IMG/VR virus record: IMGVR_UViG_3300027863_001757
Coordinates: 1,412-65,411 of that record
Source: a virus
Taxonomy: Duplodnaviria > Caudoviricetes
Strand: one strand, 5' to 3'
DNA: 64,000 nucleotides
Positions 29,755-58,353 of this stretch are shown in pieces. A program made the position numbers and the translations under genes. Under the pieces are notes generated by a model. That model had not been told where the DNA came from. It ran no database searches and worked only from the letters and a program-made list of their open reading frames with translations. Position 1 is the stretch's first letter, and every line of letters begins with the position of its first letter.

Positions 29755-32700
29755 TTAGTTCTTGTTGCCTGCGCTCTGGCCGACACGCTCCCGGTATGCG
29801 GCCATGAAGCCCGTCTTGAGCTTGTCTTCCAGGCTTGTATTCTTGTCATCCACATCGAGCGGACGTACGCCCGCATCCGTGCGAAGCTGGCGGTCGGCCT
29901 GTGAGGAGCCGGGCTTGTCCTTGTCTTTGCCTTTATCCTCGCCTTCGCCCTTTCCGTCGGTGTCGGATTTCGAGCATTCGGGCTTTGCCTGCACTGCTCT
30001 GTCGTAAGCGGCCTCGGTCGCGGTGAACGCATCGTCGGAAAGCTCCGAAAGGCGGCCCAGTTCCTTTTCACGCTCCTCGTCGGAAGCGAATGTCATCCCA
30101 GCCTTTTCAAGCTTCGCGACAAGTTTCGCGGCACGGGACTTGTTTGCGGCTGCCTTGCTTTCCGCCTCAAGCTCCTGAACCTGTTTTTGAAGCTCCAATA
30201 CCTGGTTCTTGAGGTCTTTGTTTTCCGTCTCAAGCTCCTTTATTCGGGCCTTGTCGTCTGCCGGTGTGCCGCCTCCGCCAGCAGGCGCGTTCTTCTTCGC
30301 AGCTTCTTCACGCTGCTCGTCTGTCTCATGCTCTTTCTTGTCGTCTTCCACTGAGCTGCCTCCTGTGTCTGTGGGGTTGGTTTGCCTTGCCTCCTGTGAG
30401 CCGACCTGCGTAATTCGCGCGTTTTCATCAGCGCCTTTGCGGTCCAGCAGTCCAAGGCCGGTAAATGTAACACCATGTAAAATCTCGAAGACCGGCTTGC
30501 CCTGATAATCGCCTCCCTTGTATTTGCGGAGGTGAATGCAGTAGTCGTTCTTCGACGTCATCGTCTTGCCGCAGATAGAGCACTCCCCAGCCTCGTAATC
30601 ACACTCCATCGAGACCTGGCTGATGATGCCGCGTTTCATGAGCTTGTAAGCAAGCGCGGCGGTAGGGGTATCTTTCACATACAGCTCGCCCACGCACTCG
30701 ACCCGGCCGCCAGTCTCATCCTCAACGAACTCAGCGCCCACGATCCCGCCGACGATGTCGGTGAGATCCTGAGAGTGCTTAAGGTCTATCTTCTTGTTGA
30801 TCGCCGTAGTGTACCGTGCCGCCAACTCGTCGGCTGCGAAGTGGTCGCCGTTCTTATTGGTCCCCGCACGGCACATAATGAAGCTGAACTGTGGGTCACC
30901 CGCGTTTGGGTTGATGTCTATAGCGTCGGCTGAGAGCTGTGTAGACCCGGCAATGCATACCTCGACCGGAATGGACGTGTGACAGTTAGCGGGCAGCGAG
31001 GCGGCCGCAGCACTGGGCGCACCGCTGGATTTTGAGGAGATGAAGAGCAGCTCGCGGCCGGTCTTGCCCTCGCTTCCTTTGCCGAGAACGATGTTGTACT
31101 CCACATCCATTCCCCTGACGCGAACGTTGCCGAGGCGCTGTGAGAAGATATCGCGGATCTCCTTTTCCGTAGGGAACGCCTTGTCGCGGTAGGACATGAG
31201 GACAGTCCCATACTTACCACGAGCCTCAGTCGCAAGGCTCTCGATGAGCGAGCGTATGCTGTCGCGATCATAGTGCGTGCGTGACTGATAGCTCCTGCGG
31301 TTGTCGTCGAGGAGCGTCTTATCGGCCCAGCGGTTCATAAGTCCCTCGACAAAGTGCAGGGAGTACTCATAGTCGTTGTTCGAGAACTGGGTGATGTACG
31401 GTGGGTCGAGGTAAAGCACATCCGCGCCGAACTTGCGCACGGCTTCCACAGCGTCACCGTGGAACGCCTTGCACTCCTGGCCGTTGTCGAATACCAGCTT
31501 ATTGAGCTGGGCCGCGTAGCGTTTGAAGCTCTCGACCATGCTGGAGACCGGCAGGTTCACAAGCTGGTTCTCTTTTACACCGGCGTCTGATTCCAGGTCA
31601 GCCTTGAGATTGAGTTTCGAGCGATGGAACTGACCATATAGGCTTTTGGCTTTCACCGTATTACCGAGCGCGGCAAGCGCAAGGTCTTTCTTGTAACCGG
31701 GCAGCTTCTGGATATTCGCCCACACTTGATCGAGCCACGCGAGCACTTTCTTGGTGTAGTAGTAGCCGTGGAAGTTGTCGACGACGAATGTGCCTGCGTT
31801 CGAGTTCGGCGCGAGGACCTTCTCGATATCCTCGTCAGTCAAGGTCTCGTGCGAGTTTTCAACGACGGCACGGGCGACGTGGTAGGGATAGAGCAGCAGG
31901 TCGTTGGCTATGACCTTCAGGCCCTTGCGCTTGAAATGATACGCTACATTCGCGCCGCCGGAGAACGCGTCGAGGAGGGTCTTCGCGTCCTTCGGAACCT
32001 GCCGCTCTATCCAGCCGAGCATCATGTATTTATTGCCCATGAAGCCCGTAACGCGGACTGGGTCCATTCCTGCCTGACAGGAGAGCAAGTCCACGTCATC
32101 CGCGAGAGGCGCGTCGGCCAGTGCCGCCATGTTCTCCTCGATGCGTAGCTCAGCCTTGGATGCCTCGGGCTCGTGCCGCTTCACCCAATCCTGGGCTTTC
32201 TCCATAGTCCAGCCGTCGGGATTCTTCTCGGTTCCTTCGTCTTTGCTTAGGACATGCTTCTTGGCAAAGCGATACGCCTGCAGGACCATCGCTTTCGGAT
32301 CATGGCCTTCGGGGACCAGCTCTTTCTTCAGCCTGCCGATAATAATTGCGATACCGTCAACGCCGTCAAGGTCTTTGCGCCTGAAGCTATCCGGCTCGAA
32401 CTGCTCGGGATCGCGTACGCGGTAGCGGATCTCGTTTTCGGTCTCGTCCCACTCGGCCTGCGCCTGCATTTGCGAGCATGCTGGACACAGCCCCGCCGAT
32501 TGTTTCAACTTGCCCGACCGAGAGCATACGAACAGGCGCTCAATGGCCTGCGAGTTCTCGGACTGTCGGGAAGATATGTAATAGCGGTGCTGCTGCGAAC
32601 TGATCCGGCTTTCCATGCCGTTTGCTGAGATGATGTCTTTCATCTCGGCTTCGTTCGGATAAGCATGGTCGCGGTACGATATGAGCCAATTCGGAATGTG

Positions 32701-33639
32701 CTTCGCGTTGGCAAGAAACGTCGTGAAGAACTCGCCGGCGTTAGCTTTGGTGACAGTCTTGTGGTCTGTCTCATAATGGTGAGTTTTTGAGTCTCCTACG
32801 AGTGTAAGGCCGTCCCAGTAGGTCATGAGACCTTCGGTGAAGTGGTAAGCCTTCTCATAGTTGGTCGTCGAGAATTCGGTCGCGTAGGGAGGATCAAAGT
32901 AGGCGAGATCGACCTTTGCGTCCGCCAGCACGTCGTTTACATCCTTGCAGATTGCCTTACACTCTTTGCCGTTATCGAAGATGAGCGCGTTGATACGCGC
33001 CACATTGTTTAGGAAGCGCTCTTTGAATTCGTCCGGCGTGTCCTGCCGCTTGCCGTATTCGGTCGAAGAGGAAAAGTGCCCGAAACCGCCCTTGCCTGCA
33101 AGACATGCCTTGCCGAGAGCAAAGAGCGCAATGTCCTTCTTGTAGCCAGAAAGCGCATCGATATTTGCCCGGATGTTGTCGATGATAGTGTGGACACCAT
33201 CGGCGAAAAAGAGGCCCTTGAAGTTGTCCCTAACGAATGTGCCGGCCTTAGGATTGTCGGCTATGAGCGCATCAAGTTCTTCCTGGCTGATCCGGACGGA
33301 GTTATTTTCAATGATAGCCCTGGCGATATGATAGCTGTAGTGGAGTCTGTCGTTGGCAATGACCTTGAGGCCCTTGGTCTTGTACATATACGCCACGACC
33401 GACGAGCCGGAGAACGCGTCGAGGATCGAGCTTATGTCTTCCGGCGTATGCTTCCATATCCAGTCGACAAGCTTCTGCTTTGAACCTATGTAGTTAGTGA
33501 TGTATTTCGGACGCTCATCCGGTGGCAGTTCTTCCGTAACAAGCTCCGCCGCCTGGGCGAGCAGGTCGTCCAGGTGACGTGAAGCGTCTGTCTCAAGAAG
33601 AAAAGCCAGCCGATCAAGATCCGTGGCAAAAAGCTGCAT
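29755..33639 (-). CDS. Fusion: two N6-adenine DNA methyltransferase domains + prohead protease + scaffold coiled coil
   Basis: MTase 1: NYIGSK...DAFSGS...DPPY (32884). MTase 2: FMGNK...DAFSGG...DPPY (31397). Then NKNGDHF...DLKH...VSMEC...CSICG...CIHL...GADENA protease-like domain and an acidic/coiled-coil scaffold. One uninterrupted 1294-codon frame. Confidence 0.88.
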   Translation of the reverse strand: MQLFATDLDRLAFLLETDASRHLDDLLAQAAELVTEELPPDERPKYITNYIGSKQKLVDWIWKHTPEDISSILDAFSGSSVVAYMYKTKGLKVIANDRLHYSYHIARAIIENNSVRISQEELDALIADNPKAGTFVRDNFKGLFFADGVHTIIDNIRANIDALSGYKKDIALFALGKACLAGKGGFGHFSSSTEYGKRQDTPDEFKERFLNNVARINALIFDNGKECKAICKDVNDVLADAKVDLAYFDPPYATEFSTTNYEKAYHFTEGLMTYWDGLTLVGDSKTHHYETDHKTVTKANAGEFFTTFLANAKHIPNWLISYRDHAYPNEAEMKDIISANGMESRISSQQHRYYISSRQSENSQAIERLFVCSRSGKLKQSAGLCPACSQMQAQAEWDETENEIRYRVRDPEQFEPDSFRRKDLDGVDGIAIIIGRLKKELVPEGHDPKAMVLQAYRFAKKHVLSKDEGTEKNPDGWTMEKAQDWVKRHEPEASKAELRIEENMAALADAPLADDVDLLSCQAGMDPVRVTGFMGNKYMMLGWIERQVPKDAKTLLDAFSGGANVAYHFKRKGLKVIANDLLLYPYHVARAVVENSHETLTDEDIEKVLAPNSNAGTFVVDNFHGYYYTKKVLAWLDQVWANIQKLPGYKKDLALAALGNTVKAKSLYGQFHRSKLNLKADLESDAGVKENQLVNLPVSSMVESFKRYAAQLNKLVFDNGQECKAFHGDAVEAVRKFGADVLYLDPPYITQFSNNDYEYSLHFVEGLMNRWADKTLLDDNRRSYQSRTHYDRDSIRSLIESLATEARGKYGTVLMSYRDKAFPTEKEIRDIFSQRLGNVRVRGMDVEYNIVLGKGSEGKTGRELLFISSKSSGAPSAAAASLPANCHTSIPVEVCIAGSTQLSADAIDINPNAGDPQFSFIMCRAGTNKNGDHFAADELAARYTTAINKKIDLKHSQDLTDIVGGIVGAEFVEDETGGRVECVGELYVKDTPTAALAYKLMKRGIISQVSMECDYEAGECSICGKTMTSKNDYCIHLRKYKGGDYQGKPVFEILHGVTFTGLGLLDRKGADENARITQVGSQEARQTNPTDTGGSSVEDDKKEHETDEQREEAAKKNAPAGGGGTPADDKARIKELETENKDLKNQVLELQKQVQELEAESKAAANKSRAAKLVAKLEKAGMTFASDEEREKELGRLSELSDDAFTATEAAYDRAVQAKPECSKSDTDGKGEGEDKGKDKDKPGSSQADRQLRTDAGVRPLDVDDKNTSLEDKLKTGFMAAYRERVGQSAGNKN

Positions 33640-56347: not shown

Positions 56348-56935
56348 TCAGAGATAGTCCTTCAGCCCGGCCTCATCGAAGATGCCTCTGAGCTTACGGA
56401 TAGCGTCGTAGACCTGCTGGCGGGACGCGCCTGTCGCGGCAGATATCTGTGTCACAGTCTGAGTCTTCAGACCCTCACAGATATCCTTGAGTGCTGGCGG
56501 CAGATTACTGACGACTCTTTCGATGTCCAGCCGCATTTCGAGCAATTCCAGTTTTGGACGGGAAAGCAGGCCCGCTCCCAGCAGGTAATCCTCTCGATCT
56601 ATTGCCTCCATTCGCTGCATGACGCCGAAACCGTCTTCTTCGGGAATCTCCTCATTTAGAGAAAACTCAAAAGTGGCGTTGCTGTCGACACGCTTGTTCC
56701 TGCGGATCATCGTTCGAGCCTTGTTCTCCACGACGCAGGCAATGAACGTCTTCACAGTGCCTCGCTCGGGATCGTGTTCCTGCAGGTGCTCAAACAGGTG
56801 CAGCGCGATCTCCTGTTCCAGATCATCGCGGTCGGACGCTCTGAACCCACATCTCTTGATTAGCTGCCTGACTTTGAGCCTGATATACGTGATTGCATAA
56901 TCATCGAAATTTCCATTGCTCGGTATGTCACCCAT
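56348..56935 (-). CDS. Sigma-70 family (ECF-like) RNA polymerase sigma factor
   Basis: DRDDLEQEIAL...HDPERGTVKTFIACVVENK region 2; LDIERVVSNLPP...ISAATGASRQQVYDAIRKLR region 4 HTH. Confidence 0.88.
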   Translation of the reverse strand: MGDIPSNGNFDDYAITYIRLKVRQLIKRCGFRASDRDDLEQEIALHLFEHLQEHDPERGTVKTFIACVVENKARTMIRRNKRVDSNATFEFSLNEEIPEEDGFGVMQRMEAIDREDYLLGAGLLSRPKLELLEMRLDIERVVSNLPPALKDICEGLKTQTVTQISAATGASRQQVYDAIRKLRGIFDEAGLKDYL

Positions 56936-56940
56936 TTTGT

Positions 56941-57040
56941 CCTCCTCGACTTGCGAGGAGATCGCTGTGGGTGCCGCTTACAAAAAGGCGGAGGCATTGC
57001 GATGACGCCAAGAGTGGCGACACCCACAACGACCTCCGCC
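56941..57040 (-). promoter_or_regulatory. Structured 5' leader of the sigma gene with mutually exclusive stems (attenuator/RNA switch candidate)
   Basis: A 21-bp stem (57037-57017 with 56977-56957) competes with a terminator-like stem ending CCTCCGCC-TTTTT and with a hairpin covering the GAGGAGG RBS. Confidence 0.65.
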
Positions 57041-57195
57041 GCGCGGTCAGTCATTTTCGTGTAATGTCTTGAATTGTCTGTCTTTGAGGTCCCGAGAATG
57101 CCCTGAGCTATCCCGGACCCAGTCGTATATCTACCGGAACCGCATGCGATGTGGTGAAACTTTTTTCAAAGCCAGCTTCCGACTCCGATGGCATC

Positions 57196-58014
57196 TTAAT
57201 GCCTGATCAGCTTGGCTGTCTCAAAGCCCAGCCGGAACCCTCCAATCCCGGCAAATAGTTCTGCGAATGTAAACTCTCCGCCGATTGTCTCCATGACCCG
57301 CTCCGCGAGCCATCTGGCTACTAACACGTTCACTGCGTTTCCAACGAGGATTCTACGGCGCGAGCGAGATAGTCCAGAAGTCCAGCCTCTGGGGAACCCC
57401 TGCAGGGATTCGCATTCGGTCGGATCGAGCATTCGTAGACCCCGTTCCGGCTCGTAACAGTAAGTGTCCTCCGCAGCCACCCGGTTGGGGTGCGCAGTAA
57501 GACACGCTGCAATGGGCGTTTCCTCTTCCACGCGCGACGCAGCAAACCCATAACCATCTGCGGCGTCAGATACAGCTCGCTCGAATCCGGTGCGCAAGGA
57601 AGAAGGGCATCCGATACAGAACTGCCGCCTGCGACTCTGACCTGTGAAATCACGAGCGTCGAGCGCGACAACAGCGATTCCGTATCCGAGCAGCTCCAGC
57701 CCGGCAGCAAAGTTGACAACATCTGGTGCACAAACATTCTCGCGGACCACCCACGATGGGCGAAGTCGCCCGACCACGGCAAGGAAGTATCCGGACAAAT
57801 CGGGATGCTTGCTGGGCCTATTCCCTCTGGCCAGGGAACGTGCAGGGCATGGATCTCCTCCGCAAACAACGTCGATTGTCCCCAGGCTCTCTGGTTCAAG
57901 CTCGTCGAGCACATCCCGGATATCTCCCTGGCACAGCGTCCCATCGTCCCAGTGCCTGCGGTATATCTCGCAGGCAAACCTGTCGATCTCGTTGGCCCAT
58001 ATACATCGGTTCAT
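57196..58014 (-). CDS. C5-cytosine DNA methyltransferase, circularly permuted (motif I at C-terminus)
   Basis: Order: II (CIWANEID), IV (GGDPC), VI (ENV), VIII (QSRRR), IX (ECESLQGFP), X (GNAVNV), then I (FAELFAGIGGFRLGFE). Confidence 0.85.
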   Translation of the reverse strand: MNRCIWANEIDRFACEIYRRHWDDGTLCQGDIRDVLDELEPESLGTIDVVCGGDPCPARSLARGNRPSKHPDLSGYFLAVVGRLRPSWVVRENVCAPDVVNFAAGLELLGYGIAVVALDARDFTGQSRRRQFCIGCPSSLRTGFERAVSDAADGYGFAASRVEEETPIAACLTAHPNRVAAEDTYCYEPERGLRMLDPTECESLQGFPRGWTSGLSRSRRRILVGNAVNVLVARWLAERVMETIGGEFTFAELFAGIGGFRLGFETAKLIRH

Positions 58015-58020
58015 AGAGGT

Positions 58021-58353
58021 TCACACTCGCACCGTCTCCACTATCTGCATCCGAAACGGCAGCCCATTGTGGACTTCCAGAGTCTGCACGACACCGTCGC
58101 CGAGTCTGTGGAACTGCCGCAACATCTCCATTACCTGTGCCTTGTCCTGGTAGTCACGGTCAATGATGATCGGCGTTCTTCTTGCATGCAGATCGAGCTT
58201 TATATCCTTGAGCACCTTCGTGCTCGGCTCGATGACCGGCTCGCCGCCGCGAACAATAAGGCCCTCGATCCTGCCGTAATGGATCTCCTGCATTAGCTGG
58301 AGCAGGTATCGTTCAGAGTGTGAAAGCGATACTTGAGGTCTCGGTGCGCTCAT
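58021..58353 (-). CDS. Hypothetical protein with duplicated G.I..L.V..G.P motif
   Basis: YGRIEGLIVRGGEP and DGVVQTLEVHNGLP; GGGAGG RBS. Confidence 0.75.
   Translation of the reverse strand: MSAPRPQVSLSHSERYLLQLMQEIHYGRIEGLIVRGGEPVIEPSTKVLKDIKLDLHARRTPIIIDRDYQDKAQVMEMLRQFHRLGDGVVQTLEVHNGLPFRMQIVETVRV

Follow-up and report, generated by a model that had tools for sequence, protein, structure and literature searches.

Genomic Context of the Methyltransferase Gene

The stretch of viral DNA analyzed here (the window, 64,000 nucleotides) represents most of the 65.4-kb IMG/VR provirus record IMGVR_UViG_3300027863_001757, which has a CheckV completeness of 64%. A 272-aa ORF on its minus strand, found in the ORF list and by its translation, encodes a permuted C5-cytosine DNA methyltransferase (C5-MTase), designated P0001. 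The gene lies inside the record, about 6 kb from its end. Its parts and three further ORFs mentioned below are:

57196..58014, minus strand: complete permuted C5-cytosine DNA methyltransferase gene (ORF list, PF00145, phrog_116)
57982..58005, minus strand: motif II, residues 4-11 (CIWANEID), now N-terminal; aligned to HhaI 34-41
57916..57930, minus strand: motif III, residues 29-33 (QGDIR); aligned to HhaI GDIT, D31 invariant
57835..57864, minus strand: motif IV, residues 51-60 (CGGDPCPARS), with the predicted catalytic Cys56; aligned to HhaI GFPCQAFS
57733..57753, minus strand: motif VI, residues 88-94 (WVVRENV); E92, N93 and V94 invariant in 125 sequences
57619..57639, minus strand: motif VIII, residues 126-132 (QSRRRQF), Q-x-R-x-R pattern; R128 and R130 invariant, Q126 nearly so
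57418..57606, minus strand: variable region or short target-recognition domain (TRD), residues 137-199, between motifs VIII and IX
57391..57417, minus strand: motif IX, residues 200-208 (..LQGFP); aligned to HhaI 279-287, G206 invariant
57295..57348, minus strand: motif X and its helix, residues 223-240 (GNAV...); G225 invariant, AF2 helix 230-244
57274..57294, minus strand: linker, residues 241-247 (METIGGE), old C-terminal tail fused to old N-terminal head
57214..57273, minus strand: motif I, residues 248-267, with beta-1, FAGIGG glycine loop and helix A; aligned to HhaI 13-30
57196..57213, minus strand: five variable residues and the stop codon; new C-terminus, placed in the former helix A/beta-2 loop and marked by divergence in sequence and length
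56860..57054, minus strand: 64-aa ORF downstream of the methyltransferase gene
58021..58353, minus strand: 110-aa ORF upstream of it, in another frame
29755..33639, minus strand: 1294-aa ORF with two D12-class N6-adenine DNA methyltransferase stretches (PF02086, E = 6.5e-45)

The gene is located in the early/replication module, in a minus-strand block that includes an exonuclease gene (phrog_1218, E = 6e-51) and a sigma-factor gene. The 64-aa ORF is kept in the metagenome contigs L118 and L170 described below (about 74% at the nucleotide level), and the 110-aa ORF, whose stop lies 6 nt before the methyltransferase ATG, has an end that is conserved in L170. Neither of these two flanking ORFs gave a Pfam or PHROG match. 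Among the neighbouring ORFs scanned, three were without any family match and none matched a restriction-enzyme family. Since the 1294-aa ORF carries two D12 stretches in addition to the permuted C5-MTase, the phage has at least three methylase domains. The most economical reading of the C5-MTase would be an orphan phage methylase guarding phage DNA from host restriction. In a related phage, L014 (IMGVR_UViG_3300048599_000388), the exonuclease (36% amino acid identity), a 245-aa ORF (46%) and part of a 1191-aa ORF (42%) have counterparts in the window. A normal-order methylase at the orthologous site was not found in related phages; that of L014 (45%) sits elsewhere.

The SAM-Binding Motif I Is Located at the C-Terminus

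C5-MTases are a textbook example of an enzyme family with rigidly ordered motifs. P0001 was recognized as a member by PF00145 with 107.8 bits (E = 9.7e-31, cut-off 22) in three stretches and matched phrog_116 with E = 6.8e-45. With TIGR00675 it scored 98.1, narrowly under the cut-off of 100.65, the match being split by the permutation, and the normal-order relative P0008 scored 104.6. The order of the motifs in P0001 is II-III-IV-VI-VIII-TRD-IX-X-linker-I. In a phmmer comparison with M.HhaI, residues 3-94 corresponded to HhaI 34-121 (motifs II-VI), residues 153-241 to HhaI 232-319 (IX-X) and residues 249-266 to HhaI 13-30 (motif I), so that the three pieces break collinearity.

For an independent view of the order, a family HMM of length 263 made from 102 normal-order homologs was used. 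The native protein matched it as two domains, with HMM positions 24-259 at residues 3-243 and positions 2-22 at residues 248-268. When the last approximately 27 residues were put first, a single domain spanning HMM positions 2-259 of 263 was obtained with 397.5 bits, and a 5-residue insertion appeared where the old termini had stood. Because the native protein gives two domains and the reordered one a single end-to-end match, the permutation is clean. By the same two comparisons, the original prediction of a C5-MTase with motif I at its C-terminus was borne out, as was its proposal that joining the C-terminus to the N-terminus recreates the normal junction. The break corresponds to the loop that connects helix A with strand beta-2. 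In agreement with the HMM alignment, residues 2-23 of P0008 matched the window at 57273..57208 in a tblastn search.

The prediction had further stated that no motif I is encoded upstream, and this also held. An in-frame stop lies only two codons upstream of the ATG, the open frame comprising 274 aa. The 110-aa ORF in the other frame has no similarity to MTases, and tblastn with normal-order relatives detected no second MTase piece in the whole window. An upstream or frameshifted motif I was ruled out on these grounds.

The arrangement was compared with the known orders of C5-MTases. It is not the canonical linear order from I to X, as the motifs run from II to X and are then followed by I. It also differs from the M.BssHII type, in which IX-X precede I-VIII: P0001 starts at motif II, and only motif I follows IX-X (residues 200-240). 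In DRM enzymes, motifs VI-X are followed by I-V, i.e., the break lies between V and VI; in P0001, motifs II-VIII precede IX-X and the X-to-I junction alone is common to both. In the split two-subunit C5-MTases M.AquI and M.EcoHK31I, the motifs are spread over two polypeptides, whereas the single ORF described here holds every motif and the window contains no MTase fragment elsewhere. These results support a true circular permutation of the gene, with the break between motifs I and II.

All residues that define the C5-MTase motifs are present and conserved in P0001 (F254-G256-G258, E9, P55-C56, E92-N93-V94, Q126-R128-R130, and G225-N226), and PC of motif IV, ENV, QxRxR, GN and the acidic residues of motifs II and III are likewise conserved in its permuted relatives. 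By homology with HhaI E40, E9 of motif II is the acidic residue that binds the ribose, and it is nearly invariant in an alignment of 125 sequences (A2, of which 113 are normal-order relatives); A7, N8 and D11 are invariant in 8 permuted relatives. In motif IV, G52 and C56 are invariant over the 125 sequences, and G53, D54, P55 and P57 nearly so. The variable region fits the family HMM without large gaps, and its AF2 block pLDDT was 62-91. The length of the linker equals that of the C-terminal tail plus the N-terminal head of normal-order relatives. In motif I, 14 columns are invariant in 17 permuted sequences, and an alignment of 8 proteins showed F248, F250, E252-G256 and G258-E265 to be invariant. 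Directly after A267, the permuted relatives diverge in sequence and length.

The Permuted Order Is Conserved and Under Purifying Selection

A search of 5.8 billion proteins yielded 498 relatives, and the best 120 clusters were examined for their motif order. Seven of these 120 (P0002-P0007 and P0009; 58-91% identity) had the same permuted order, and the other 113 were normal-order enzymes of about 260 aa. Thus, the homologs of the same order sought in the original prediction exist, with at least eight protein clusters carrying the permuted order. Three contigs, each from a different source, carry the exact P0001 protein; 11 members make up its 90% cluster, and a relative in NCBI (MCE5322412.1) is annotated plainly as DNA cytosine methyltransferase.

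At the DNA level, two metagenome contigs were found to carry the permuted gene, L170 and L118, the latter taken from a contig of 222 kb; both show synteny with the window and 76-84% nucleotide identity to it. Both contain the downstream small ORF and the sigma-factor gene, and L118 extends into the exonuclease gene; the nucleotide homology of both to the window ends at approximately position 57220. They were the only permuted cases among the matches listed in the metagenome DNA-pattern scan, most of which belonged to a normal-order family of about 410-440 aa with identical motif I wording. In this family, which is abundant in gut metagenomes, the wording ELFAGIGGFRLGFE is common at the N-terminus (loci L099-L218) and is followed by W.NQWEP or WFSQWEP. 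A scan of genome contigs revealed no relative, and scans of IMG/VR gave only normal-order relatives apart from the window's own record. In 50,697 deposited phage genomes, all tblastn matches ended at about residue 245.

The gene-wide dN/dS in comparison with L170 was 0.18. In the segment comprising residues 240-267, 19 of 84 nucleotides differed from L170, with saturated synonymous sites, and the protein showed one amino acid change.

These data bear on two trivial explanations, both of which the original prediction had named together with a lack of homologs in this order. One is an artefact of assembly or gene calling, for instance through chimeric joining or false circularisation of a contig; nothing in favour of it was observed. 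Independent assemblies from JGI, ENA, Logan and NCBI show the same architecture, as do two syntenic contigs with diverged DNA, and the gene is internal in its record, so that an artefact is practically excluded. The other is a tandem duplication of which only a decaying remnant is left, or a pseudo-enzyme inactive for other reasons; the TIGR00675 score just under the cut-off might speak for it. This is very unlikely, because homologs as distant as 58% identity retain the order and all catalytic and SAM-binding residues without change, the dN/dS value and the nearly unchanged motif I protein sequence indicate purifying selection, and no MTase fragments are left flanking the gene. The lack of homologs is contradicted by the seven clusters and two contigs described above.

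Motif IV and the Short Variable Region Are Family Traits

Motif IV of P0001 reads GGDPCP instead of the GFPCQ of M.HhaI, and the TRD is short. Both features, pointed out in the original prediction, are indeed present; their being special to the permuted enzyme was rejected. GGDPCP is nearly invariant across A2 and the short variable region is common to its normal-order members. As the 113 normal-order relatives have both, they are traits of the family of about 260-aa enzymes and are not linked to the permutation. The GGDPCP family consists of small methylases, most of them from phages or prophages (17 IMG/VR loci carry it), and the search made turned up no characterised member. In an unrooted tree built from the core columns, a branch with an SH-aLRT support of 94 separated the permuted proteins from the 113 with normal order. 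According to this tree, a single change of order would suffice.

The unusual motif IV might be taken as a sign that the C5-MTase fold serves another chemistry or substrate here, e.g., another C5 adduct or RNA/tRNA, and a C5-carboxymethyltransferase (8yf3) was among the fold matches. However, the best fold and sequence matches are classical DNA 5mC enzymes, PC, ENV and QxRxR are all canonical, and the phage context suits self-protection of DNA, which makes a different reaction quite improbable.

Comparison With Natural and Engineered Permuted C5-MTases

The closest normal-order relatives, P0008 and P0010 (about 260 aa), share 65-69% identity with P0001 over residues 3-243 and have the same motifs IV, VI, VIII, IX and X and the same short TRD, but in them motif I stands at residues of about 7-12, in canonical order. 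M.HhaI (2uz4, 1hmy) is the best structural match of the model and all motifs can be aligned, whereas it comprises 327 aa in canonical order, has a larger TRD and is about 19-20% identical. The plant DRM enzymes (NtDRM, 4onq/4onj; DRM2, 7l4h), for which structures have been solved, resemble P0001 in that X is followed by I; they are eukaryotic, and their similarity reaches only E values of about 5e-6.

Natural permuted C5-MTases were surveyed in 2018, in the one systematic study that was found, by screening 20,677 REBASE entries for motif X before motif I, which gave 27 sequences (Albert, Varga, Zsibrita, and Kiss, 2018, PLoS One; PMC5944983). Permuted enzymes count there as members of the C5-MTase family, and the natural ones were reported to have their break in the variable region only. 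M.BssHII, M.Alw26I, M2.Eco31I, M.Esp3I and M2.BsaI are, like P0001, natural enzymes in which motif X covalently precedes motif I. According to the same article, the break of this type lies in the variable region, with IX-X ahead of I-VIII and both domains intact (PMC5944983), whereas P0001 is broken inside the SAM-binding subdomain. The break point, called unusual in the original prediction, thus differs from that of every natural permuted C5-MTase reported in the survey.

The same authors engineered permutants at every inter-motif segment, and two of these, cp35M.MpeI (scored "++") and cp33M.SssI, protected plasmids in vivo, the former being poorly soluble (PMC5944983). Both presumably have the I/II break, because they stand ahead of cp62 and cp58 with the II/III break in the series, and the label "Type A" would probably apply to them. 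If so, they share with P0001 a single chain in which X is joined to I and the N-terminus lies between I and II. They are laboratory constructs of 386-395 aa with CG specificity, in contrast to P0001, which is natural, has 272 aa, belongs to another subfamily and is conserved in a clade. A full-text literature search found no later report of a natural C5-MTase with the order II..X-I. Based on the survey, this search and the tblastn results, P0001 is a natural case of a topology that had been known only in engineered enzymes, and the permuted clade provides a counter-example to the finding of the 2018 survey that natural breaks fall in the variable region only.

Structural Model and Docking of the C-Terminal Segment

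An AF2 model calculated with the 125-row alignment had a mean pLDDT of 84 and a pTM of 0.83, with means of 62-97 for ten-residue blocks of residues 1-240. The core (residues 1-245) was confident and matches M.HhaI, and the top Foldseek matches of the model were M.HhaI (E = 6e-12, TM 0.70), M.HaeIII and DNMT3. Residues 254-272 had a pLDDT below 50; at these positions 113 of the 125 rows are gapped. With a 17-row alignment of permuted sequences only, the mean pLDDT was 59 and the tail again below 50, and in this overall poor model a strand was predicted at 250-254 only, the position expected for beta-1. C5-MTases have a two-domain fold with a complete seven-stranded sheet. Of the intact Rossmann fold that had been proposed for an AlphaFold check, the core was therefore obtained with confidence, but the C-terminal beta-1 was left unplaced in both runs, the low values being due to gapped or shallow alignments.

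The undocked C-terminal segment in the monomer runs and the short linker of seven residues behind the motif X helix would also fit an enzyme that works only as a domain-swapped dimer or oligomer, in which beta-1 and helix A of one chain complete the SAM pocket of another. We consider this rather unlikely. The low pLDDT is explained by the alignments, and the linker has the length of tail plus head in normal-order relatives and matches the X-to-I distance in the DRM domains, which have a monomeric fold. The segment IX-X-linker-I of P0001 can be aligned contiguously to these solved domains (68 versus 70 residues). Together with the linker length, this alignment is indirect support for a docking of the C-terminal beta-1 within its own chain.

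P0001 of this temperate phage is thus most probably a working C5-cytosine DNA methyltransferase, consisting of a single chain with a natural circular permutation. It keeps all ten canonical elements on a chain that runs from beta-2 (motif II) to motif I with beta-1, the glycine loop and helix A. In canonical C5-MTases, the motif X helix ends beside the N-terminal beta-1; in P0001, the linker of old tail and head ties the two together. The C-terminal beta-1 is expected to insert into the centre of the Rossmann-type sheet and could then complete the SAM pocket with motifs II, III and X. Judged from the conserved residues, catalysis would follow the usual route with Cys56 of motif IV, E92 of ENV and R128/R130 of motif VIII. 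With the break placed within the SAM-binding subdomain, the sheet receives its central strand last, which makes the protein useful for studying late insertion of a central strand during folding and for designing split or permuted methylases as epigenome-editing tools.

Possible Origin of the Permutation

The permutation may have arisen when a small methylase gene was duplicated in tandem and in frame (or fused) and both outer parts were then lost, and the duplication model of permutation is cited in PMC5944983. A fused dimer cut down to an internal start and a stop after the second motif I would give a gene of the P0001 type. In normal-order members, the conserved Met of the "AGM" loop lies exactly at the start of the permuted proteins and would serve as a ready-made start codon, and the linker would be the expected product of an in-frame fusion of two tandem copies. 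Fusions of this kind do exist, as P0142 (1146 aa) is a natural triple-fused C5-MTase with three motif sets in tandem in one protein. The permuted clade therefore offers a natural, selected test case for the duplication-truncation model.

A Second Permuted Group Shares the Termini but Not the Core

A search with the X-linker-I junction uncovered a second group with the I/II permutation (P0122-P0124, P0126 and P0152; fragments P0125, P0127 and P0132). Long multi-stretch matches in this search were rejected as MTases, being mostly repetitive non-MTase proteins. The proteins of the second group start with MNTCLYANE... and end with GGEFTFAELFAGIGGFRLGFE, as in the group of the window, and have a canonical core with GGFPCQ, ENVPGL, RERVF and GNAIVPQV. 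Between the groups, identity at the two ends was 49-77% (residues 1-35) and 68-89% (residues 240-267), both as high as inside the window's group, and 16-23% over residues 36-239. The core of the second group nests in a very large normal-order family of about 240-aa proteins (7998 hits scored). The shared terminal module is closest to proteins with contiguous motifs X, I, II and III (P0139, P0136), and of the two families the GGFPCQ one resembles it more than the GGDPCP one does.

From the like termini around unrelated cores it follows that the permuted SAM-binding ends frame an exchangeable core. Since the second group shares the ends and not the core, the gene appears to be a mosaic with a swapped IV-to-X cassette. 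By these sequence comparisons, the permuted frame is probably older than the window's core, and the IV-to-X cassette has probably been replaced by recombination at least once; the pattern suggests a modular exchange of methylase specificity among phages. A more far-reaching view, which we put forward tentatively and regard as possible though not the likelier course, is that the permuted ends (II-III at the 5' end, I at the 3' end) are a conserved frame in which phages recombine the IV-to-X cassette for adaptive switching of specificity, the topologies deriving from one X-to-I fusion. If true, the I/II permutation would be an adaptive architecture to switch methylation specificity, and the natural topologies with a break after I and after III would all descend from that fusion.

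Further Proteins With Unusual Motif Arrangements

P0139 (545 aa, on four contigs, the longest of 15.9 kb) has the order IV..X followed by I-II-III and matches PF00145 in three stretches (E = 6e-61). Its sequence suggests a natural permutation with the break between III and IV, a topology not reported from nature in PMC5944983. In four other proteins, P0134 (294 aa), P0146 (290 aa), P0136 (128 aa) and P0138 (120 aa), only (TRD)-IX-X-linker-I-II-III is present and motifs IV-VIII are missing; these are fragments from contig ends or else one of the two halves of a methylase that is both split and permuted. The profile phrog_16427, which is 235 positions long, aligns contiguously over the X-to-I junction of the window and may represent proteins of the same kind.
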